DNA from: Candidatus Parcubacteria bacterium
Lineage (GTDB): Bacteria > Patescibacteriota > Minisyncoccia > Phycocordibacterales > UBA918
Length of the DNA stretch: 49,163 bases
Direction of reading: 5' to 3'
Assembly (NCBI GenBank): GCA_009995385.1
Contig: JAACPT010000003.1
Span: forward strand, 1 to 49,163
Part shown: one piece after another, positions 17,834 to 38,543 of the stretch
Layout: each line of letters opens with the position of its first letter
How positions within the stretch are numbered: the first letter of the stretch is position 1
Notes under the pieces: generated by a model
Seen by the model: only the letters and a program-made list of their open reading frames with translations
Database searches by the model: none
Told to the model about the DNA's origin: nothing
Translations under genes and position numbers: made by a program

Positions 17834-18106
17834 ATGAACAAAGCAGACATCATCAGCAAAGTGCACGAGGTCCTCGACACCACCAAAGCAGACGCCGAGC
17901 GCGCTGTAGACGTAGTGTTCAACAGTATTGAAGAAGCCATGAAGGATGGTTCACAGGTATCAATCGCAGGATTCGGTATCTTCGAAGCAAAGATGCGTGC
18001 TTCACGTGAAGCTCGTAATCCACGCACTGGTGAAACCGTAAAGGTACCAGCCATGCGCGTACCAAAGTTCCGCGCAGCTAAGGCACTCAAAGACGCAGTT
18101 AAGTAG
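17834..18106 (+). CDS. hup: HU-family DNA-binding protein
   Basis: 90 aa with MNKADIISKV, GFGIFE and RNPRTGETVKVPA (the HU arm). Confidence 0.9.
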   Translation: MNKADIISKVHEVLDTTKADAERAVDVVFNSIEEAMKDGSQVSIAGFGIFEAKMRASREARNPRTGETVKVPAMRVPKFRAAKALKDAVK

Positions 18107-28268: not shown

Positions 28269-28339
28269 CGGGGTGTAGCATAGTGGTAGTGTACGCGGTT
28301 TGGGACCGTGTGGTCCGGGTTCGATTCCCGGCTCCCCGA
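28269..28339 (+). tRNA. tRNA-Pro (anticodon UGG)
   Basis: Hand fold with acceptor CGGGGTG/CTCCCCG (C1-G72 as in bacterial tRNA-Pro; one T-T mismatch), anticodon stem CGCGG/CCGTG with loop TTTGGGA, and T arm CCGGG-TTCGATT-CCCGG. No encoded CCA. Confidence 0.85.
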
Positions 28340-28350
28340 CAAAAAATATA

Positions 28351-28439: not shown

Positions 28440-29031
28440 ATTTCACATGAAACGAATTGATTGGATAAAAAAGATACCCCTAATTGAAAATATGTTTCAC
28501 GTGAAACGTATTGAGTTTTGTTTCATATGTAACATATGGATATAAGTAAAGGTAAAATATTTTTTACTCTTCAGTACAGCTAGTTGTATTATGAGATCAA
28601 TCGAGAATTACGTTCCTAATATATTTTAACGTTGCATATTTTTCACGTGTAACAATCCTTACTGCAATAACATCAATTTCCCAATCTCCTTTATACTGAT
28701 TTTCTTGAATCCAACTCTCTATGGCACGATTCAGACGGTTAATCTTTGCGCGATGAACATTATCCTCCGGCTTCCAAGTTTCACGTGAAATAGAAAGTTT
28801 TAGATCTTGTTTAGTTTCATATGAAACTGTTTTTACTTCAATAAAGCGTATTACTCCAGTTTCACGTGCAACGATGTCAATCTCACCCCATTTTTTAAGA
28901 TAATTAGTGTCTACTATTTCAAGACCTCGTTGCTGTAAGTATTTTGCGGCAATCGACTCTCCATATCCACCAATTATGTTTCGTCTTCCTTTCTTTTCAG
29001 TTTGTTTCATATGGAACGTTTCACGTGAAAC
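28440..29031. repeat. Array of nine parS-like 14 bp palindromes (core GTTTCACGTGAAAC)
   Basis: Sites, with mismatches to the core:
- 28440-53 ATTTCACATGAAAC (2)
- 28494-507 GTTTCACGTGAAAC (0)
- 28520-33 GTTTCATATGTAAC (3)
- 28640-53 TTTTCACGTGTAAC (2)
- 28778-91 GTTTCACGTGAAAT (1)
- 28814-27 GTTTCATATGAAAC (2, still palindromic)
- 28859-72 GTTTCACGTGCAAC (1)
- 29004-17 GTTTCATATGGAAC (3)
- 29018-31 GTTTCACGTGAAAC (0)
The core equals the central 14 nt of the canonical ParB/Spo0J site TGTTNCACGTGAAACA. Confidence 0.7.
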
Positions 29032-29088
29032 GTATTGCTTGATTAGTTGATAGTCTTTGTCTGATAATATGGCTTTAATTATAGCCAA
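28597..29088 (-). CDS. yraN: YraN-family (UPF0102) endonuclease-like protein
   Basis: 163 aa with GGYGESIAAKYLQQRGLEIVDTNY...GEIDIVARETGVIRFIEVKT, the YraN signature. The alternative start ATG at 29010 (MKQTEKKGRR...) would give a more typical 137 aa protein. Confidence 0.8.
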   Translation of the reverse strand: MAIIKAILSDKDYQLIKQYVSRETFHMKQTEKKGRRNIIGGYGESIAAKYLQQRGLEIVDTNYLKKWGEIDIVARETGVIRFIEVKTVSYETKQDLKLSISRETWKPEDNVHRAKINRLNRAIESWIQENQYKGDWEIDVIAVRIVTREKYATLKYIRNVILD

Positions 29089-29131
29089 TAGCTTAAAAGG
29101 ACATGATTACTTTACATCTGTTGATTGTCCT

Positions 29132-29160
29132 TTATCCACCTATACACTTGTTTATCCACA
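29132..29160. promoter_or_regulatory. Two same-orientation DnaA-box matches (TTATCCACC, TTATCCACA)
   Basis: 29132-29140 has one mismatch and 29152-29160 is a perfect match to the consensus TTATCCACA. Both lie in the 125 bp spacer between yraN and tRNA-Gly(GCC). Confidence 0.5.
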
Positions 29161-29170
29161 GTTCTTACAA

Positions 29171-29200
29171 AAAAGCGACACTCATTTGTAGGCGTCGCTT
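29171..29200 (-). terminator. Terminator hairpin downstream of tRNA-Gly(GCC)
   Basis: AAAAAGCGAC-ACTCATTTGTAGGC-GTCGCTTTTT. T-runs follow the stem on both strands. Confidence 0.55.
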
Positions 29201-29212
29201 TTTATTGACACT

Positions 29213-29284
29213 GTGCGGCCAGGGAGAATCGAACTCCCGACTAATCCTTGGCAAGGACTCATTATACCACTTAACCATGGCCGC
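29213..29284 (-). tRNA. tRNA-Gly (anticodon GCC)
   Basis: Reverse-strand hand fold with acceptor GCGGCCA/TGGCCGC, anticodon stem AGTCC/GGATT with loop TTGCCAA, and T arm GGGAG-TTCGATT-CTCCC. No encoded CCA. Confidence 0.9.
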
Positions 29285-29288
29285 AAGG

Positions 29289-29957
29289 TTATTTTGAAAG
29301 TTTTTTTACAAACAGTTCAGTCCAGCGATCGAGTTTACACTTCAGAGCTGTGCTGCCGATTATAGTATTTCCTGTGCCATTGTGCAACGTCTTTCTTGTT
29401 GGTGTACCATTGGAAATTTGATTTTTATGAAACTGTGAATAAGGAATCCTAATAGCGCGTTGCCATTTTCTCATAGCTGTTTCTTCCTTTACATCGCTTG
29501 GTAGGAGTAACCAAAAGTGAACATTATTTTTTGATATACCTAGGTAATCAAAGGCAAATCTGATGAATATTTGATGAGCATCCATCCGAGTAGTGGAGAA
29601 ACGAATGGTACTTTTATCCTTGCGGTTGCCAAGCGCCAGATACAGCGCTAGTCCAGCCATGAAAAAAGGGTCTTTTTTGTAGTGTTTAAACTCTGTCTCA
29701 GCCGCACGACCAACCTCTACGTACCGCGACTGACGTTCGCCACGCCGTGCTTTAGCAACAAGAGTTAGGCGTTTAGCATTTTCAATACCAGCTCTTTTAA
29801 CATTCTGTGTGGTTATTTCAGCTGAAAAAGGCTTATCCTTCAACCATTTTGAAGCTGTGGACTTGGAAATGACACAGTATTTAGCGATCTCCTGCAGCGT
29901 AAAGCCCCGCATACGCAAACTGACGACTTGCTCATATTTCTCACGATTTCGAACCAT
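29289..29957 (-). CDS. N-terminal helix-turn-helix DNA-binding protein, function unknown
   Basis: 222 aa. The resolvase / sigma-r4-like HTH is RGFTLQEIAKYCVISKSTASKWL. I do not recognise the basic middle region or the C-terminal domain. It ends 5 nt before tRNA-Gly(GCC). Confidence 0.6.
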   Translation of the reverse strand: MVRNREKYEQVVSLRMRGFTLQEIAKYCVISKSTASKWLKDKPFSAEITTQNVKRAGIENAKRLTLVAKARRGERQSRYVEVGRAAETEFKHYKKDPFFMAGLALYLALGNRKDKSTIRFSTTRMDAHQIFIRFAFDYLGISKNNVHFWLLLPSDVKEETAMRKWQRAIRIPYSQFHKNQISNGTPTRKTLHNGTGNTIIGSTALKCKLDRWTELFVKKLSK

Positions 29958-30150
29958 ATATCATATATAGCATATACTATCTATATTTGTTCGATTAACC
30001 TGTTGGTAATTTTTTGAGAATTTAGATTAGTATTGATTTTTATTAACTACTTAAGTAAGTCAATGTTAGTGCTTCATAGACACTCCCAATTATGGACATG
30101 CCGCATTGCCAAACAGCCGTTTTCGCCGTATGATAGTCACACCTAGAAAA

Positions 30151-30222
30151 GCGCCTATGGTGAAATGGATATCACAACTGACTTCGGATCAGTCGTTCTG
30201 GGTTCGAGTCCTGGTAGGCGCA
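30151..30222 (+). tRNA. tRNA-Arg (anticodon UCG)
   Basis: Hand fold with acceptor GCGCCTA/TAGGCGC, D arm GTGA/TCAC, and anticodon stem ACTGA/TCAGT with loop CTTCGGA. No encoded CCA. Confidence 0.9.
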
Positions 30223-30250
30223 CAGTAAATTTCCGGTACAATGACCAGTT

Positions 30251-31723
30251 ATGTCCATTCGTCAGATAGACATCCCAATTGAAGTAAAGCAAGTAGCAAA
30301 AACCCTTGAAGATAATGGTTTTGAAGCTTTTATTGTGGGCGGTTGTACGCGAGACCTTATGCTTGGAAAGACCCCAAAAGACTGGGACCTGACTACAAGT
30401 GCACAGCCCACTCAAATTCAAGCGTTATTTCCAGAACACTACGCTAATAATGACTACGGCACTATCGGTATCAAGACAGAATCAGACGACGATACTTTAA
30501 AAATCATTGAGGTCACGCCGTACCGCGCTGAAGGTAGATACACTGATGCCAGACGTCCAGACAGCGTCACTTTTGGCGTCTCACTAGAAGAAGACCTTAA
30601 ACGTCGTGATTTTACCGTTAACGCGCTAGCTTTTCGTATTTCTACTGGTGCACTCATCGATCTTTTTGAAGGTAAAGATGATCTTGTAGCAAAGCGATTG
30701 CGGGCAGTAGGGAAGGCTGAGGAACGATTTGCGGAGGATGCACTTCGCATGATGCGGGCAGTTCGCTTGGCAGCTGAACTTAATTTCATGATTGAAGATG
30801 AAACCATGTCAGCTATCGTAAAAAACAGCAACCAATTACGCCGTATTTCTGTTGAACGGGTTACCGGTGAGTTTTTACGCACCCTTAATTCTCCGACCCC
30901 CATGCAAGGAATTGTCCTAATGGAAAAATTAGGGTTATTAGAGCATTTCTTACCAGAACTCCGTATCGGAATTGGGGTAGAACAGGGGGGAGCTCACATT
31001 TATGACGTCTACGAACATCTTCTACGCACCATGCAAGCGGCGGCAGATAAGGATTTCTCCCTAAAGTTACGCTTGGCAGCACTTTTTCATGACATTGCAA
31101 AACCGCAGACACGAAGGGAAGGAGGTAAAAACAAACAATACACCTTCTTTGGACACGAAGTAGTGGGAGCACGGATGACTAAAAAGATACTGGAGCGCCT
31201 CAAACTTCCCCGTGAGACAATAGATGAAGTGGTAAATTTAGTCCGTTGGCATATGTTTTTTGCTGATCCCGAAGAAATTACCTTGGCGGCAGTACGGCGT
31301 ACTATTACTCGCATCGGAGAAGATCACATCGAAGAATTACTTAATCTTCGTGTCTGTGACCGTATTGGTATGGGAAGACCAAAAGAGCAACCATTCCGCT
31401 TCCGTAAATACAAGGCTCTGGTTGATCAAGCCCTTCGTGACCCTATTTCAGTAAAAATGCTCAGAATTGACGGAGTTCGTATCATGGAGCTAACAGGAGA
31501 AAAACCAGGGAAAAAACTAGGCTACATCCTGAATGCTCTGCTTGAAGAAGCCCTGGAAGATGCGAGTAGAAACACGTCAGAATATTTAGAAAAACGTACA
31601 CTAGCGCTTATACAACTACCTGAAGACGAATTGTTTATTCTGGCTGAAGCGGGGAAACAAAAACAAGCAGCAGAGGAATCAGCGGCTTTAAAGGACATTG
31701 CTCGGGAACACCATATAGGGTAG
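30251..31723 (+). CDS. cca: CCA-adding tRNA nucleotidyltransferase with HD domain
   Basis: 490 aa with GGCTRDLMLGKTPKDWDLTT (polymerase-beta nucleotidyltransferase head), RRDFTVNAL and the HD motif LFHDIAKP. Confidence 0.9.
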   Translation: MSIRQIDIPIEVKQVAKTLEDNGFEAFIVGGCTRDLMLGKTPKDWDLTTSAQPTQIQALFPEHYANNDYGTIGIKTESDDDTLKIIEVTPYRAEGRYTDARRPDSVTFGVSLEEDLKRRDFTVNALAFRISTGALIDLFEGKDDLVAKRLRAVGKAEERFAEDALRMMRAVRLAAELNFMIEDETMSAIVKNSNQLRRISVERVTGEFLRTLNSPTPMQGIVLMEKLGLLEHFLPELRIGIGVEQGGAHIYDVYEHLLRTMQAAADKDFSLKLRLAALFHDIAKPQTRREGGKNKQYTFFGHEVVGARMTKKILERLKLPRETIDEVVNLVRWHMFFADPEEITLAAVRRTITRIGEDHIEELLNLRVCDRIGMGRPKEQPFRFRKYKALVDQALRDPISVKMLRIDGVRIMELTGEKPGKKLGYILNALLEEALEDASRNTSEYLEKRTLALIQLPEDELFILAEAGKQKQAAEESAALKDIAREHHIG

Positions 31724-31745
31724 TCTTTTATAAAGGACATATTAG

Positions 31746-31771
31746 AAAAACGGCCCTGTTGAGCCGTTTTT
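31746..31771 (+). terminator. Rho-independent terminator after cca
   Basis: AAAAACGGC-CCTGTTGA-GCCGTTTTT. Confidence 0.65.
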
Positions 31772-31793
31772 CGGTATTTCCGCACCCACCTAA

Positions 31794-31991
31794 CTATCGT
31801 AGTGGCCCTATACACATTCTTGTTTGCACTTCATTAGAGTTAGGTAAGCTCATTTCAAAATCTATTCCAAAACAGGGAGAGTCCTGGGAATAGAGGGATT
31901 CAAACGGTATATAGTAGATATGTAATATCTGAGTTAGAAGAAACAAAATGAAAATAAGTGCTGCGACAATAAACTTCCATTTTCTTTTCAC
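31794..31991 (-). CDS. Possible small membrane protein (65 aa, GTG start)
   Basis: There is one clear TM segment (FIVAALIFILFLLTQIL). There is no RBS, the start is non-ATG, and I recognise no homology. It could be a chance ORF. Confidence 0.25.
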   Translation of the reverse strand: MKRKWKFIVAALIFILFLLTQILHIYYIPFESLYSQDSPCFGIDFEMSLPNSNEVQTRMCIGPLR

Positions 31992-32577
31992 TACAAAAAG
32001 TATAACATGTTGGTCACCCGTACTCTGTGCCAGTATTATTCTAAATTACAATGAAACATTCGCATCGATAGTACTCGGAATATGGATGGGCACTTAACCC
32101 CGTCCAGGAATTCACGCTAGGAATTGCGTGAATTCGGACGTAAATTCACAATATGTCCTTTGGGCACTTGTTCATTTAAAAAAAGACCTGAAGGAATCGG
32201 GAGCCAATCTGTAGTGATTATCAGCTGCCGGTGCCTTCAGGTCTTATAATAAATGAGCTTGCTGTTGGAGGATTATGGTAATCCAAGTGGGCGCTTACAA
32301 TTGAAGCTAACCCGATCCGAAGCTCTACGTTGTTGCGAGAGATGTACGTTATTCCGACTTTGCGCTTCTAGATGATTTGCAATGTCTGTACTCTCTCTTA
32401 TAGGGTGGGATGTTATGAACGTTTTGAGTAAGAGTCTTTTGACTCTTGGAGGTAATACTCAATTGTATTTTGGAAGATCTCTTTAAGGGGAACCTCGAGG
32501 GAGTTGGTTAGAATTGTTTCTACTCAACTCTCTCGAGATGCCTGCTCGCCCTTTCTGGGCCTGTCACTATAGTAGTC

Positions 32578-32640
32578 TTTGTAAAGGACAGTGTAAAGGA
32601 CAGTCTTGTGGATAACTGTTGATAAGTTGTCCTTTACAAA
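32578..32640. repeat. Iteron-like unit: a 13 bp inverted repeat enclosing a tandem 12-mer and two DnaA-box matches
   Basis: TTTGTAAAGGACA (32578-90) pairs with TGTCCTTTACAAA (32628-40). GTAAAGGACAGT is tandemly repeated at 32581-92 and 32593-604. TGTGGATAA at 32607-15 is a perfect DnaA box, and TGTTGATAA at 32617-25 has one mismatch. Confidence 0.6.
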
Positions 32641-32833
32641 TTTACTTGACTAAATTACGTTCCGTGTCTTTCTTATACTATACTTTTTGGTTCAGCTAGT
32701 GCGTGGGATGTATTAGCAGTAGTAAATCATCCCGTAGCGATTTCTAATTATAATAAGGTCTCCTGTCCGACTACATAAATAATGGAGCGGGGGCGATTGA
32801 TCTCTGCCAATATATTTTATGTAAGAATGAACA

Positions 32834-33631
32834 TTATAAATCAAGGCTTAATTCAACTGAAACAGGGCAGTGGTCGGAACCCATGACATTTGAGTGGATG
32901 CGCGCGTTCTTAATCATCGGAATCAAATCTTTCGAGGACATAATATAATCAATACGCCAACCAATATTTCGTTCACGAGCTCCGGCAAAATGTGACCACC
33001 ACGTATAATTATTTCCTTCCTGATTGAAGAGTCGAAAGGTGTCCGTAAAACCCTTATCTATCATCGCTTCTATGCCAGCACGCTCCTCATCAGTAAAACC
33101 TTTCTTACCTCGATTTTCTTTTGGCCTGGAAAGATCAAGCTCAGTGTGAGCAACATTGAAATCTCCACAAAAAATAACTGGTTTTACTTGCTGTAGTTGA
33201 TCCATATATTCCAAATAGGCAGGGTCCCATTGCTGTCGCATGGCAATACGTGAGAGGTCATCTTTGGCGTTTGGGGTATATACCGTACTGACAAAGAATG
33301 GTTCAAATTCAGCCACCATGGTTCGTCCCTCTTTCAGAGTATCACCGTACTCATCTGCTAGTTGGTATTTGGTGGCGATGTTCGCTGGCAACCCATGCTG
33401 CACAGCAATTGGGGTGTGTTTTGTAAATATAGCTGTTCCAGAGTACCCTTTGCGCTCTGCCGAAAACCAATACTCTTCGTAGTCTTCAAAATCAAGATCA
33501 ATCTGGTCTTGATTTGCTTTGGTTTCTTGTAGACAGAGGATATCTGGCTGGTGTTCAGCTAAAAATGGCTCTAATAGACCTTTTTTATGTACGGCACGAA
33601 TTCCGTTTACGTTCCATGAATAGATTTTCAT
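32834..33631 (-). CDS. xth: Exodeoxyribonuclease III (AP endonuclease)
   Basis: 265 aa with MKIYSWNVNGIRA, LCLQETK, GDFNVAH and SDHCPV motifs. Confidence 0.95.
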   Translation of the reverse strand: MKIYSWNVNGIRAVHKKGLLEPFLAEHQPDILCLQETKANQDQIDLDFEDYEEYWFSAERKGYSGTAIFTKHTPIAVQHGLPANIATKYQLADEYGDTLKEGRTMVAEFEPFFVSTVYTPNAKDDLSRIAMRQQWDPAYLEYMDQLQQVKPVIFCGDFNVAHTELDLSRPKENRGKKGFTDEERAGIEAMIDKGFTDTFRLFNQEGNNYTWWSHFAGARERNIGWRIDYIMSSKDLIPMIKNARIHSNVMGSDHCPVSVELSLDL

Positions 33632-33727
33632 ATCTAGCTAGTCTACCTGATAATAGAAAACTATAAAATGTATCACTTACTTTCTCCTACTCTCCTCAAA
33701 TGCACTTTTTCCCTATAAAATAGACAC

Positions 33728-34651
33728 ATGAAAATAAGAACCTATTCAGTAATCATTGGGTTAGTCATTTTAATAATCGTCGGTGCTCTCTATTTTTCTC
33801 AAGAAAGAATGGCAGCAACTACAGTAGTAGGTAACACGCCAAGTGAAGTATCGATACCAGAAATTTCAACCACAAAAACAGTAACCGCCCTTGAAAGCAA
33901 CGTTGAAATTGGTACTGAAGGTTTTGCGACCAATGTTGACGTAAGCGGTGCGGCATTTGATGAACCAGTGCTAATCACTTTTGAGACTGACGGTGATTCG
34001 CTACACACGATAGCAGTACCAACTATCGAGCTTCCGCTCTGTGCTGCATACGGAAAAATCGCTGACGTAAACGATATTTTAATTGGAGACAGACTATCGG
34101 TTCGCGGCATGACTGATGAGGATGGTCGCCTTGTCCCTTGTGACAGCGACCTACATTTCCTCACCATTAGTACAGTGTACACCGATGAAACTACTGGACT
34201 GACGTTCGTATACCGAAAAAGTCCTGATGGATATCTACGAGAGGGTGATGAGTACAAAATTAGCACTGATCCAAACTTTGTGACTGGAGTTGCATTAACT
34301 ACAAAAAAAGGAGCCCTTGAGCTTCTTTTGAGCGACGTCCCGCGGGAGTTACCACCAAGCATCAAACTTCGTGTCTACAAAAATTCTGAGGAGCAGTCTC
34401 CTCTAGAGTGGGCAAAGGCAAATGCTGTCGAATCAAATTATGCATTGGCACTCTTTGAGCCAGCAGAAATATCGGTAGGGAAAAGAGAAGCAGTTGGGTT
34501 CACGGCTGACGGACTATATATGGCCAAAATATATATAGTTGCCTTTGGTGAAAATATACTTACTATCACCGGAGAATACCTTGAAGAGGATTCAATGGCA
34601 TATCGTGATATTGAGCAAATAGTTAATACTGTTTCCTTTTCTAAGAGCTAA
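33728..34651 (+). CDS. Membrane-anchored extracytoplasmic protein, function unknown
   Basis: 307 aa with an N-terminal TM segment (VIIGLVILIIVGALYF). I recognise no domain. Confidence 0.6.
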   Translation: MKIRTYSVIIGLVILIIVGALYFSQERMAATTVVGNTPSEVSIPEISTTKTVTALESNVEIGTEGFATNVDVSGAAFDEPVLITFETDGDSLHTIAVPTIELPLCAAYGKIADVNDILIGDRLSVRGMTDEDGRLVPCDSDLHFLTISTVYTDETTGLTFVYRKSPDGYLREGDEYKISTDPNFVTGVALTTKKGALELLLSDVPRELPPSIKLRVYKNSEEQSPLEWAKANAVESNYALALFEPAEISVGKREAVGFTADGLYMAKIYIVAFGENILTITGEYLEEDSMAYRDIEQIVNTVSFSKS

Positions 34652-34682
34652 AGGAAATAACTCTCCGTGATATAGTACTGTA

Positions 34683-35258
34683 GTGAACAAGAAGCAATTC
34701 ATTGTCAGCGTTATAGCTGATTTTGCACCAATTATCGCTTTTGTTGTAGCTACTGAATTAGCAGGATTCATGATTGCTTTGCTGTGGCTCGTCGCTGTGG
34801 CGATACTTTCCGTTATCATCGAGTGGACTGTTTCTCGAAGACCACCGAAATTTGGTTTAGTAGCATCAGTGACGATTTTCTTGTTTGGTGTATTATCCAT
34901 CGTCACTGGAGATGAATTCTATATCATCATCAAGGATACTCTTTATGCTCTTTCTTTTGCGGTTGCATTACTCCTTGGACTATTATTTAAACGTTCATAT
35001 CTTGAGGTACTTTTTGGTGACTATTTTGCAATTACCAGAAGGGGATGGTTTGTTTTAACGTATCGTTGGATAATTTTCTTCTTTTTACTGGCTATTACGA
35101 ATGAATTTGCTCGCACGTTGTTGGTGCCTGATGTTTGGATTTACTACAAATTAGTAGCCGTACTCTCGACCTGGGTCTTTGGTTTTTATCAGCTCACCCT
35201 GACAAAACGTGAGCGACTTCCTGAAGCAAATACCTGGGGACTCCGCCAATCACAATAA
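34683..35258 (+). CDS. Polytopic inner-membrane protein, possibly the YciB/IspZ septation-protein family
   Basis: 191 aa with a GTG start and five hydrophobic helices. The size and architecture are like YciB. The assignment rests on overall pattern only. Confidence 0.4.
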   Translation: MNKKQFIVSVIADFAPIIAFVVATELAGFMIALLWLVAVAILSVIIEWTVSRRPPKFGLVASVTIFLFGVLSIVTGDEFYIIIKDTLYALSFAVALLLGLLFKRSYLEVLFGDYFAITRRGWFVLTYRWIIFFFLLAITNEFARTLLVPDVWIYYKLVAVLSTWVFGFYQLTLTKRERLPEANTWGLRQSQ

Positions 35259-35301
35259 TCTTCTTGTTATCTCGGTGGATTTTGGCGTATAGTGTCAGAG
35301 C

Positions 35302-36555
35302 ATGAAAAAAGCGGCACCAACGGTGTGGGATGTAATCGTAATTGGTGGTGGACCAGCTGGAATGATGGCTGCTGCCCGAGCTGGCGAACGTGGTAAAACG
35401 GTCCTTTTACTTGAAAAGAATACCCGACTGGGCGTAAAGCTTTCCCTCACCGGTGGCGGTCGTTGCAATGTCACCAATAACAAAACCGACGTGCGGACGA
35501 TGCTCACTAATTATAAAGACGCTGGAAAATTTCTCTTTTCTACGTTCACGAAGCACGGAGTAGCAGAAACGATACAGTGGTTTGCAGGAAGAGGGATTAC
35601 TTTCCATGAAGAGAACGAGGGAAGACTGTTTCCAATAACTAACTCAGCAGAAACTATTAGGAAGACCCTGATTGATGCCTTACGGGAGCAGCAAGTATCG
35701 ATACGAGTGGGGGCGATTGTCAGCGCCATTTTACACGACGTCGAGACGGGACTTTTTACTATACAACTTTCTAATGGGAAGATATCGCACAGTCACTCAT
35801 GCATCGTTGCCACTGGTGGTATGTCACGACCAGAGACGGGTTCAACAGGGGAGGGATTTTCCTGGTTGAGCACCCTTGGTCATACCATAAAGAAAGATTC
35901 TCTCTCACTAGTACCCCTCATGCTCCATGACACGTGGGTAGAAAAGATACGTGGTGTTACCATACCTGATTGTAAAATTACCCTCTACAGTGGTGATAAA
36001 AAACAAAAAGCCCAACGTGGAAAGATACTCTTTACACACACTGGAGTAAGTGGGCCGACGATATTAAATATAAGTAGCATGGTAAAAGAGCTACTACTTC
36101 ACGGGACGGTGACCCTAGTCCTTGACCTTTTCCCTGAACTAGATGACAAGGCTCTACGAAGCAGTATACAAGAACTGCTACTCATCAATTCCAACCAAAA
36201 AATAAAAAATGTCCTTGCCAGGATCGTTCCACGAGCGCTTGCGTTGATCATTCTGGAATTATTGAAAATAAATAGTGAAACACCAACGCACAGTCTCCTC
36301 GCCAAAGATCGAGTTATGCTCGTATTTTTTCTCAAACATTTTCCACTGCACGTAAAAGGACTACTCGGCGCCGACAAAGCAATTGTCTCTAGTGGTGGAG
36401 TTTCACTGACTGAAATAGACTTTAAAACAATGGGTTCTCTTATCGTCCCTAATCTCTTCTTAGTTGGCGATGTACTAGATATCGATCGACCCTCAGGAGG
36501 GTATAGTCTGCAGCTTTGTTGGAGCACTGGATATGTGGCTGGGAGCAGTGCGTAA
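35302..36555 (+). CDS. HI0933/BaiN-family FAD-dependent oxidoreductase
   Basis: 417 aa with the dinucleotide fold VIVIGGGPAGMMAA, GGGRCNVTN, ATGGMS and a C-terminal GGYSLQLCWSTG. Confidence 0.85.
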   Translation: MKKAAPTVWDVIVIGGGPAGMMAAARAGERGKTVLLLEKNTRLGVKLSLTGGGRCNVTNNKTDVRTMLTNYKDAGKFLFSTFTKHGVAETIQWFAGRGITFHEENEGRLFPITNSAETIRKTLIDALREQQVSIRVGAIVSAILHDVETGLFTIQLSNGKISHSHSCIVATGGMSRPETGSTGEGFSWLSTLGHTIKKDSLSLVPLMLHDTWVEKIRGVTIPDCKITLYSGDKKQKAQRGKILFTHTGVSGPTILNISSMVKELLLHGTVTLVLDLFPELDDKALRSSIQELLLINSNQKIKNVLARIVPRALALIILELLKINSETPTHSLLAKDRVMLVFFLKHFPLHVKGLLGADKAIVSSGGVSLTEIDFKTMGSLIVPNLFLVGDVLDIDRPSGGYSLQLCWSTGYVAGSSA

Positions 36556-36647
36556 CTGTGCTGTGCACTGAACGTATTGACGAAGAAGCTCAATCGGGAT
36601 TAGACTTACCCTCGGATTTCTTGGCTTTTTACCTTGAAGGAGAAATT

Positions 36648-36953
36648 ATGACTACTTTAAAAGACGGTAAGCAGTATTTGCTTGAAGCCTTCCAATGTTC
36701 TTTTGACCAAAATTTTCAGGAAAGGATGCTGCAGCAAGTAGAAGCAATGACGGCAATTCAGAATTCGCAATGCGTTTGGGAAAAACTTCCTCATGCTGAG
36801 CAACAACGATGCGGTTCAATTGAAAATCACCCGCAGGGCATGGAACTTTGCATTGAAGAATGGATTAAAACCGGCAAGGCAGAACAGTGGGGAGACTCAT
36901 ATGTACAGACGCAACATAACTTAGATATCAATAGTATATCTACTGGTAAGTAA
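36648..36953 (+). CDS. Hypothetical protein (101 aa)
   Basis: Start set at the ATG at 36648, preceded by GAAGGAG. The longer track ORF (from 36516) overlaps the previous gene. A strong terminator follows. Confidence 0.45.
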   Translation: MTTLKDGKQYLLEAFQCSFDQNFQERMLQQVEAMTAIQNSQCVWEKLPHAEQQRCGSIENHPQGMELCIEEWIKTGKAEQWGDSYVQTQHNLDINSISTGK

Positions 36954-36974
36954 ACATTACTTACCAGTTTTTTA
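36942..36974 (+). terminator. Rho-independent terminator
   Basis: ACTGGTAAGTAA-ACA-TTACTTACCAGT (12 bp stem) followed by TTTTTT. Confidence 0.8.
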
Positions 36975-37015
36975 TTTGCGTGCAGGAGTACTATCAGCAT
37001 ATACTACGGCGCATC

Positions 37016-37765
37016 ATGGAATACATTCAGACACTTTGTCTTCGTCTTCTGACTGAAAAATACCAAGGCAACACAAGTGAATCCTATCAACAAGATTGTG
37101 ATCGTTTAAAGAAAGGTGAACCGTATGAATACGTCTTAGGACACGTAGATTTTCTAGGTGCCAAAATTGATCTTTCACTTCATCCAATGATTCCTCGACC
37201 AGAAACTGCTTTCTGGGTAGAAAAAGCTATTGTTGAATTGAAAGGGAAACCTGGACCACTTCGCCTTGCTGATATTTTTGCGGGATCGGGAAATGTAGGA
37301 ATTGCCTTACTAACACATCTCCCAAACGCAACCGTCGACATCTCTGAATTAGACCCAATGCTCAAAGAGCAAATTGAGAAAAATATCATATTAAATACTA
37401 TTGCACCAGAACGAGTACATGTGATAAGTGCCTCTGTCATTGAAGGCCTAACGGGGGAATACGATGCAATCTTCGCAGTACCACCATATGTACCGTATGT
37501 GGCATTACCTGAACTAGACCAAGAAATGATCGAATTCGAACCGCATCTGGCTTTCTTTGCACATGAAGATGGACACGAATTTCATCGTGCACTAATACAG
37601 AATACTTTGGATTTCCTTACCAAGGGAGGTACGTTGTACATGGAAGCTGATATGGACCATAACGAGGCTATCAAGAAATTGGTAAAGGGGACGCAGTGGT
37701 CAAAGCTAGAATTCTGGTCTGACCCGTACGGGGCAACGCCAAATGTCGTCTTGCGAAAAGAGTAA
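37016..37765 (+). CDS. prmC: HemK/PrmC-like N5-glutamine methyltransferase with a VPPY motif in place of NPPY
   Basis: Has the SAM motif DIFAGSGNVGIAL and the motif IV region AIFAVPPYVPY...EFEPHLAFFAHEDG, which aligns with the HemK sequence NPPY...FEP..AL. The start is taken at the ATG at 37016, after the upstream terminator. Confidence 0.7.
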   Translation: MEYIQTLCLRLLTEKYQGNTSESYQQDCDRLKKGEPYEYVLGHVDFLGAKIDLSLHPMIPRPETAFWVEKAIVELKGKPGPLRLADIFAGSGNVGIALLTHLPNATVDISELDPMLKEQIEKNIILNTIAPERVHVISASVIEGLTGEYDAIFAVPPYVPYVALPELDQEMIEFEPHLAFFAHEDGHEFHRALIQNTLDFLTKGGTLYMEADMDHNEAIKKLVKGTQWSKLEFWSDPYGATPNVVLRKE

Positions 37766-37844
37766 TTTCATTCAGGGTATCTATTTCTGGAATACAACGT
37801 ATACTTACCCTTACCGCGGTTTAGTAGCTAACATATAAAAATGT

Positions 37845-37934
37845 ATGACAGACCTGAAAAAAGAAGAAACCGTAGTTGCTACTCCAACCACCGATACTCA
37901 GAAACCAGAAGCTGGAGAAGAAAAGAAAGCATAA
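37845..37934 (+). CDS. Possible 29-aa hydrophilic micro-ORF (MTDLKKEETVVATPTTDTQKPEAGEEKKA)
   Basis: An ATG-to-TAA ORF followed 13 nt later by a perfect terminator. It has no RBS and no recognised homology. Confidence 0.2.
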   Translation: MTDLKKEETVVATPTTDTQKPEAGEEKKA

Positions 37935-37947
37935 ATATATACCTTAT

Positions 37948-37974
37948 AAAAAACACTCTGCAGAGTGTTTTTTA
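37948..37974 (+). terminator. Rho-independent terminator
   Basis: AAAAAACACTCTG/CAGAGTGTTTTTT, a perfect palindrome with a T-run. Confidence 0.7.
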
Positions 37975-38059
37975 TTTTACCCCTATCGTGGCAGTGCAGT
38001 TATTCCGTTTGCAATGTATCTTCTCGGTATGGTTTAATTTATTGTTTTTACACCACCCT

Positions 38060-38146
38060 GCTGGAGTGGCGAAATTGGTAGACGCGCTACGTTCAGGTCG
38101 TAGTGGGGGCAACCCCATGGAGGTTCAAGTCCTCTCTTCAGCACCA
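38060..38146 (+). tRNA. tRNA-Leu (anticodon CAG), CCA encoded
   Basis: Has acceptor GCTGGAG/CTTCAGC, the class II D region GCGAAATTGGTAGACGC, anticodon stem CTACG/CGTAG with loop TTCAGGT, a long variable arm (TGGGGGCAACCCCAT) and a 3' ACCA. Confidence 0.9.
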
Positions 38147-38342
38147 ACGAGTTTACGAGGAGATGATGAAGAAGCAGAATCCAAGGGGACTTTGTCAGCA
38201 CATATTTGTATTATTTAAAATATACTCTTGTGTTTTTACATGGGTATGCTTTAATACTGAAACGAAACGACGCTCCTCTGACGTTTTGAAGAAAGACCAG
38301 ACGAAGTGATGTTTTGTTTACAATAATTAGATCTACATATAT

Positions 38343-38543
38343 ATGAAGGGTTCAATCGTACGAAAGCGCACAGAAGGTTACGGGTTCATCAAGCCAGAAA
38401 ACGGTGAGAAAGATGTATTCTTCCACGCTTCTGCACTTGTTGATGTCGCTTTTGACGACCTCAACGAAGGAGACGTTGTTACATTTGAAGTTGAGCAGGG
38501 TCCTAAGGGTCCAGCTGCAGCTAATGTACAGCGCGCTGCGTAA
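38343..38543 (+). CDS. Cold-shock domain protein (CspA family)
   Basis: 66 aa with the RNP1-like GYGFI and RNP2-like VFFHAS motifs. Confidence 0.95.
   Translation: MKGSIVRKRTEGYGFIKPENGEKDVFFHASALVDVAFDDLNEGDVVTFEVEQGPKGPAAANVQRAA

Follow-up and report, generated by a model that had tools for sequence, protein, structure and literature searches.

A compact array of parS-like palindromes woven into yraN, a probable chromosomal centromere of Paceibacteria and Parcubacteria

Chromosomal parS sites, described in Bacillus subtilis, in Caulobacter and in many phyla, are rare, often lie inside coding sequence and serve as loading sites, not as operators. Usually a chromosome has a handful of them, spread over kilobases to hundreds of kilobases. 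In Corynebacterium, Myxococcus, Streptomyces and Mycobacterium multiple parS sites give rise to one partition complex; the clusters of these four genera extend over roughly 10-200 kb and lie beside oriC and parAB. The replication initiator is also met at such places: in Caulobacter DnaA binds at the parS centromere, and B. subtilis and E. coli (datA) have clusters of DnaA boxes away from oriC.

The locus described here belongs to this kind of system and departs from it in several respects. We analysed a stretch of 49,163 nt (in the following, the window) of contig JAACPT010000003.1 from a Candidatus Parcubacteria bacterium. In and around the yraN gene, a segment of 0.6 kb contains nine 14-bp palindromes with the pattern GTTTCAYRTGAAAC. 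Their core sequence is identical to that of the chromosomal parS/ParB (Spo0J) system, for which the consensus is TGTTNCACGTGAAACA. Unlike the usual chromosomal parS sites, they occupy fixed positions in one small gene across a class-level lineage, many of them have CATATG or CACATG centres, and parAB is not nearby. Compared with the clusters of the four genera the yraN array is about 50 times denser, and it is bounded by two tRNA genes. As in the Caulobacter and datA cases, DnaA-box-like sites adjoin the parS region, away from dnaA; here, in contrast, the putative boxes form a phased triplet in a promoter, together with a lineage-specific inverted repeat. The kind of system, parS/ParB, is thus already known. 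New are the density, the class-wide fixed positions inside one small gene and the fusion with DnaA-box-like sites.

The nine palindromes probably constitute a compact chromosomal centromere, a parS array that would load ParB (Spo0J) dimers. The observations behind this reading are the identity with the parS sequence, the confinement of the sites to the locus, the conservation of their positions and selection at the DNA level. We call the reading probable rather than near-certain because ParB binding, as well as the presence of ParB in this genome, is inferred. If ParB acts here as its characterised counterparts do, CTP-dependent ParB clamps would be nucleated at each site, slide onto the adjoining DNA and thereby build one partition complex; the complex would segregate the chromosome and/or recruit SMC. 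In such an arrangement the centromere would be woven into the 5′UTR, the start codon, the coding sequence and the 3′ flank of yraN.

The CPR/Patescibacteria are ultra-small and for the most part uncultured, and they account for a large part of bacterial diversity. Their chromosome segregation and replication control are essentially unstudied, and the searchable literature yielded nothing relevant on parS or ParB in these bacteria (Patescibacteria, Parcubacteria or Saccharibacteria) or on yraN in combination with parS. A dense array at fixed positions could serve as an easily recognised centromere landmark for a whole class, and the module could help to orient and quality-check Paceibacteria MAGs.

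All nine palindromes were found between 28440 and 29031, at the coordinates given in the original prediction, which had rightly recognised the motif as the core of the pan-bacterial parS consensus. The sites fit the 14-16-bp palindromic consensus tGTTNCACGTGAAACa: two are perfect 14-mers, whereas seven carry 1-3 mismatches. Three sites lie in the 3′ flank of yraN, namely ATTTCACATGAAAC (28440-28453), the perfect parS core GTTTCACGTGAAAC (28494-28507) and GTTTCATATGTAAC (28520-28533). Four sites are intragenic. Site D (TTTTCACGTGTAAC, 28640-28653) occupies codons 120-124 (VTREK), site C (GTTTCACGTGAAAT, 28778-28791) codons 74-78 (ISRET), site B (GTTTCATATGAAAC, 28814-28827), the best conserved of the sites, codons 62-66 (VSYET), and site A (GTTTCACGTGCAAC, 28859-28872) codons 47-51 (VARET). 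The next site (GTTTCATATGGAAC, 29004-29017; GTTCCATATGAAAC on the coding strand) extends across the yraN start codon and corresponds to the peptide FHMK. It abuts the second perfect core (GTTTCACGTGAAAC, 29018-29031), which lies in the yraN 5′UTR and would encode VSRET if a TTG-extended reading frame were read. Gene callers place the yraN start at the ATG at 29013, inside the 29004 site, which gives a protein of 137 aa; the TTG-extended frame is probably not translated. Given this ATG, the prediction correctly assigned three sites to the 3′ side of yraN, four to its interior and two to the start or the region before it, and five of the nine sites are outside the coding sequence. Several sites have CATATG or CACATG centres, and these natural variants would be candidate substrates for the cognate ParB.

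The number of sites is far above the chance level. With up to 2 mismatches allowed, the 14-mer had 8 matches in the window versus 0.25 expected from shuffled sequences, and none of 100 shuffles reached 8. Seven of the 8 matches fell in the interval of the array. The YR-centre pattern TTTCAYRTGAAA, with up to 1 mismatch, matched 11 times in the window (1.03 expected), 9 times within the interval. The count with up to 2 mismatches, which had been proposed as a check, left within the window one weak match outside the yraN locus, at 17999. This isolated palindrome (GCTTCACGTGAAGC, 17999-18012) differs from the parS core at 2 positions; it is flanked by the RNase Y gene and tRNA-Gly(UCC) and is probably unrelated to the array.

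The density of the sites had been likened to that of a plasmid centromere such as sopC. With respect to density the likeness is real: iterated centromeres of plasmids and phages, such as F sopC, R1 parC and pSM19035 parS, are also concentrated in less than 1 kb. These centromeres, however, consist of regular tandem repeats beside a par operon, and the yraN array is without both. Its units are palindromes with irregular spacing from site to site (54, 26, 120, 138, 36, 45, 145 and 14 bp), no par operon is adjacent, and the locus is chromosomal with conserved synteny. The sole tandem is one 2-copy unit (29004-29033), formed by the abutting sites at 29004 and 29018. A sopC-like iterated centromere was rejected on these grounds. 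The 20-nt identity GTTTCACGTGAAACGTATTG that the two perfect sites were said to have in common is present.

The gene that carries the array, yraN (28597-29013, minus strand), encodes a 137-138-aa PD-(D/E)xK nuclease of the UPF0102 family (PF02021, E = 4e-19). The catalytic D and ExK residues are invariant among 30 homologues, and the protein is under purifying selection too. The original prediction held that the motif is read in different frames inside the gene and took this as a sign of selection on the DNA. The frame argument was wrong. All four internal sites are in one frame, GTT-NCA-YRT-GAA-A: site A is GTT GCA CGT GAA AC, site B is GTT TCA TAT GAA AC, site C is ATT TCA CGT GAA AC and site D is GTT ACA CGT GAA AA. 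VSRET and FHMK belong to the 5′UTR site and the start-codon site, neither of which is among the internal four, and the motif, if read in one of the two other frames, would contain a TGA stop.

The conclusion of selection at the DNA level nevertheless stands, because synonymous positions are frozen and five sites are outside the coding sequence. We aligned 76 yraN genes by codon. At conserved four-fold codons the third-position entropy is normally 1.7-1.9 bits, whereas the motif codons are almost invariant. In site B, V62 is GTT in 76 of 76 genomes, S63 is TCA in 71, Y64 is TAT in 71 and E65 is GAA in 70. In site D, P121 is CCA in 63 and R122 is CGT in 62 of the aligned genes, and in site C of the relatives V74 is always GTT where it is Val. 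The normalised synonymous-codon entropy was 0.22 at motif codons versus 0.86 at other conserved codons (Mann-Whitney p = 6.6e-8). That synonymous codon choice is nearly frozen at the motif codons shows that selection acts on the DNA. Judged from these sequences, two codes overlap in yraN: the gene specifies a functional nuclease and, at the same time, DNA to be bound by a protein. It would be a clean natural example of such an overlap, a working nuclease gene with its synonymous sites set by a DNA-binding protein.

An explanation that invokes YraN itself has to be weighed at this point. YraN is a member of the PD-(D/E)xK superfamily and has a restriction-endonuclease-like fold, and in their common frame the four internal sites give pentapeptides that resemble each other; the palindromes might then be recognition sites of YraN or a by-product of a repeated YraN peptide. 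We regard this as extremely improbable. Five sites are non-coding, and a peptide repeat has no need of frozen synonymous positions. Moreover, YraN was reported in a preprint to be an ssDNA endonuclease with little sequence specificity that acts with ComM in transformation, so it is unlikely to be the reader of the motif. The codon data fit the reading of the sites as a parS array.

YraN homologues with 63-75% identity were abundant; the named ones come from Parcubacteria, Paceibacteria, Nomurabacteria and Kaiserbacteria, and the nearest species representative was a Candidatus Elulimicrobium. For the comparison we used 80 yraN loci from 80 species, with 48-74% YraN identity. The locus scan relied on the peptides EVKTVSYE and RPEENVHxxK, which means that the amino-acid motif of site B was part of the ascertainment, but its codons and the other sites were not. 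The site cluster was found in all 80 related loci, with a median of 8 sites (range 4-11). Relative to the start codon, the conserved upstream positions are about -18 to -70 and -4, the latter, at the start codon, being occupied in most relatives. The conserved internal positions are +141, +186 or +198, +222 or +234, and +360 or +372, and the 3′ flank has 2-3 sites between +415 and +530. Site B was perfect (GTTTCATATGAAAC) in 63 of 76 relatives; at most 1 mismatch was found in the upstream site of 50 of the 76 and in the best 3′-flank site of 51.

Across the 80 loci the site density was 6.07 per kb within 400 bp of yraN versus 0.09 per kb elsewhere. In 728 kb of the relatives' sequence lying beyond 4 kb from yraN, only one site came within 1 mismatch of the motif. 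Apart from exact matches, the differences among sites are concentrated at position 4, the N of the Bacillus parS consensus, and in the central CG dinucleotide. In 325 intergenic sites the flanking T and A were weakly preferred. The comparison of orthologous loci, suggested together with the original prediction, thus came out in its favour: the palindromes occupy the same positions in 80 species, well past what coding constraint would explain. The array has been fixed for a very long time in Paceibacteria/Parcubacteria, between tRNA-Gly(GCC) (29213-29284, minus strand), the conserved upstream boundary of the module, and tRNA-Pro(UGG) (28269-28340, plus strand), its conserved downstream boundary. 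A scan of viral contigs for the module gave no match.

In some species several kb of extra genes, bearing added parS-like sites, are found between tRNA-Gly and yraN, and in some genomes extra sites are also present in intergenic DNA, up to 2 kb upstream. In one subclade the gene for an HTH protein also has sites, at constant codon positions (about 39, 141 and 175). The presence of sites in inserted genes, in intergenic DNA and in the HTH gene indicates that the conserved thing is a site-rich zone at the locus, not the YraN peptide. Examples of the inserted genes are a pta-like gene, a peptide deformylase gene, citrate-lyase-like genes and a gene for a 221-224-aa membrane protein; such insertions were seen in loci L039 (6130-10000), L082 (6540-9970), L084, L075 and L045. 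Locus L084 (JBLHQB010000031.1) has a Paceibacteria-type yraN module and is labelled Patiriisocius sp., a Flavobacteriaceae genus; this contig is probably mis-binned.

The distribution of the sites also bears on a conceivable function of the motifs at the level of the yraN mRNA, where they could form short hairpins or bind proteins and so control translation or stability. In the window the whole array falls downstream of the predicted promoter and within the transcription unit, and one site is over the start codon. A 14-nt perfect palindrome, however, forms at best a 5-bp AU-rich stem, the sites in other genes and far upstream are at variance with a role in this mRNA, and the DNA motif is a well-known protein-binding site. 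An RNA-level function is therefore very improbable.

If the palindromes form a parS array, a ParB must be expected. As the original prediction stated, neither parA nor parB is in the window, according to both gene calls and a signature search. A six-frame search for the ParB, ParA and DnaA signatures GERRxRA, KGGxGKTT and GxxGxGKTHL found none in the window or, within 10 kb of yraN, in the 80 loci. The joined flank of ~12 kb (about 8.7 kb at one end of the window, about 2.8 kb at the other) had no par or dnaA genes; in all, roughly 61 kb of this genome's own sequence was covered for parB, parA and dnaA. In Supplementary Data 1 of a CPR survey (PMC6744442) the ParB family (PF02195 / K03497) is recorded in 1,717 CPR genomes, DnaA in 2,064 and GyrB in 1,985, and ParB is classed there as equally distributed between CPR and other bacteria. 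Since the family is found in most of the CPR genomes covered by that table, ParB is to be expected in this lineage, and we infer that it binds the sites of the array.

Another protein could be the reader. The gene next in line, on the minus strand at 29289-29957, encodes a lineage-specific 222-aa HTH protein, a candidate local regulator. It is syntenic with the array and on the same strand as yraN in 69 of 80 loci. Its homologues (326 matches) were found only in this lineage, are almost always ~222 aa long and have 56-73% identity across the relatives. The AlphaFold model (pLDDT 90) has an HTH at its N-terminus, a helix of 50 residues and an alpha/beta domain; in a fold search it had no significant PDB match (TM-scores 0.27 or less). 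The protein is not a recognisable ParB and was rejected as one; it presumably belongs to the array system. Bound to the palindromes, it, or some other protein, might repress or coat yraN or build a ParB-independent partition-like complex. The synteny, the restriction of the protein to the lineage, its N-terminal HTH with no known fold relative and the lack of parB near yraN speak for this possibility, but we consider it unlikely. The motif is exactly the canonical parS and ParB is common in CPR, which makes a convergent second reader needless. Eight to ten sites across the UTRs, the coding sequence and the 3′ flank are unlike the layout of an operator. In addition, a better operator candidate for the HTH protein exists, the TAAAGGACA inverted repeat, which occurs only at the two promoters flanking the HTH gene.

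The first of these promoters is that of yraN. We set 23 upstream sequences in register with the yraN start and compared them. From this comparison a conserved predicted -10 box, TATAAT (29078-29083, minus strand), was read. Further upstream an inverted repeat, AAAGGACA ... TGTCCTTT (29095-29134), overlaps the -35 region, and it is followed by a DnaA-box-like triplet with 10-bp phasing (29132-29160, plus strand), composed of TTATCCACC, a degenerate middle box and TTATCCACA. On the yraN strand the order is the triplet (TGTGGATAA / GTGGATAg / GTGGATAAA), then the inverted repeat, then TATAAT; in the window the whole promoter module extends from 29078 to 29160. The triplet recurs between -145 and -105 in about 80 genomes. 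When the 80 related loci and the window were taken together (81 loci), TTATCCACA with at most 1 mismatch occurred 7.2 times per kb at -250..0 versus about 0.3 per kb elsewhere.

The perfect 9-mer TAAAGGACA had 107 copies at -500..0 of yraN in the 81 loci and a second cluster 3-8 kb upstream. In these loci it was confined to the two places, with no perfect copy from +3 to +10 kb downstream of yraN. In the window the second promoter is at 32562-32640, where two DnaA-like boxes are placed between inverted TAAAGGACA arms and accompanied by a -10-like box. This box pair is 3.4 kb from the yraN triplet. The segments 29095-29160 and 32562-32640 are of one design: TTATNCACA-type boxes, an inverted TAAAGGACA / TGTCCTTTA repeat, then a -10 box. 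The HTH gene sits between the two promoter modules, and its product would be the obvious candidate reader of the TAAAGGACA repeat. The position of the DnaA-box-like triplet and the inverted repeat beside the array suggests that the array may be coupled to DnaA, the replication initiator, and to a local regulator.

A connection with replication is also hinted at by strand asymmetry. At fourfold sites the coding-strand skew term was -0.11 on both sides of yraN. The replication-strand term was +0.18 downstream (41 loci; positive in all within 5 kb) but 0.00 to +0.02 upstream, over at least 10 kb and with a unimodal distribution. The step lies exactly at yraN in dozens of genomes (L007-L086, upstream of yraN). 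In this genome the skew-free patch extends from about 28600 to 38500, and normal replichore skew is back near 38.5 kb. The skew indicates that forks pass in the direction of yraN transcription, and gene orientation tends to diverge at yraN. The yraN locus therefore lies within a replichore, where it borders a 10-kb patch without strand asymmetry. Chromosomal parS sites are typically close to the origin; by these skew data the yraN locus is not at the origin, which speaks against the centromere reading. The triplet together with the skew discontinuity hints at a link between segregation and replication.

These data raise the question whether the locus serves replication, as oriC, as a secondary origin or by titrating DnaA, with the palindromes in an accessory role. 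The conserved phased triplet, the further box pair 3.4 kb off, the step in strand-corrected fourfold-site skew from ~0 to +0.18 and the divergence of gene orientation would agree with such a function. The possibility of a classical oriC was examined by bulk skew, gene-strand-corrected skew and fourfold-site skew. One trait of an oriC, a DnaA-box cluster, is present upstream of yraN. No AT-rich unwinding element or array of DnaA-trios was recognised on reading the 23 upstream sequences, and dnaA or dnaN was within 10 kb of yraN in none of the 80 genomes. We rejected a classical oriC because the skew has no sign inversion, dnaA and dnaN are not nearby and no unwinding element is evident. With regard to replication elements in general, the skew keeps its sign, the replichore skew of this genome returns about 10 kb further on, and the boxes are inside a promoter with a clear -10 box, which fits DnaA as a regulator. 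A replication element with accessory palindromes is quite improbable in our estimate.

The two functions might also be combined. The yraN locus would then be a composite chromosome-organising centre of ~0.8 kb, made up of the parS array, the phased DnaA-box triplet and the operator of a lineage-specific regulator, and it might influence replication as well, be it by secondary initiation or by setting a boundary of fork direction. Such an action would account for the loss of skew over ~10 kb on one side, starting exactly from the module, in dozens of genomes. We regard the composite centre as distinctly unlikely. The reading as a parS array is the one that we prefer.

Further features were noticed in the surroundings of the array. 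Relative to yraN, tRNA-Arg(UCG) and tRNA-Pro(UGG) point one way in some species and the opposite way in others (L008-L083), whereas the order tRNA-Arg, HTH gene, tRNA-Gly, yraN, tRNA-Pro is kept. A 65-aa reading frame with a hydrophobic helix (31794-31991, minus strand) lies in the poorly conserved half of an ORF-free stretch, between a structured RNA and the gene for the CCA-adding enzyme. It may encode a small membrane protein or be spurious.

The structured RNA, of about 383 nt, maps to 32179-32561 on the minus strand. It has its promoter at 32562-32640 and an intrinsic terminator; its 5′ end is GGCCCAGAAAGGGCGAGC and it contains an invariant UUACCUCCAA stretch. Searches of the ORF-free stretch against Rfam 15, in gathering and E-value modes, assigned it to no family. 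Of the 81 sequences (80 loci and the window), 40 contained the RNA, which shared the strand of yraN in 39 of them. RNAalifold predicted 51 consensus pairs, and compensatory changes were seen in 38 of these.
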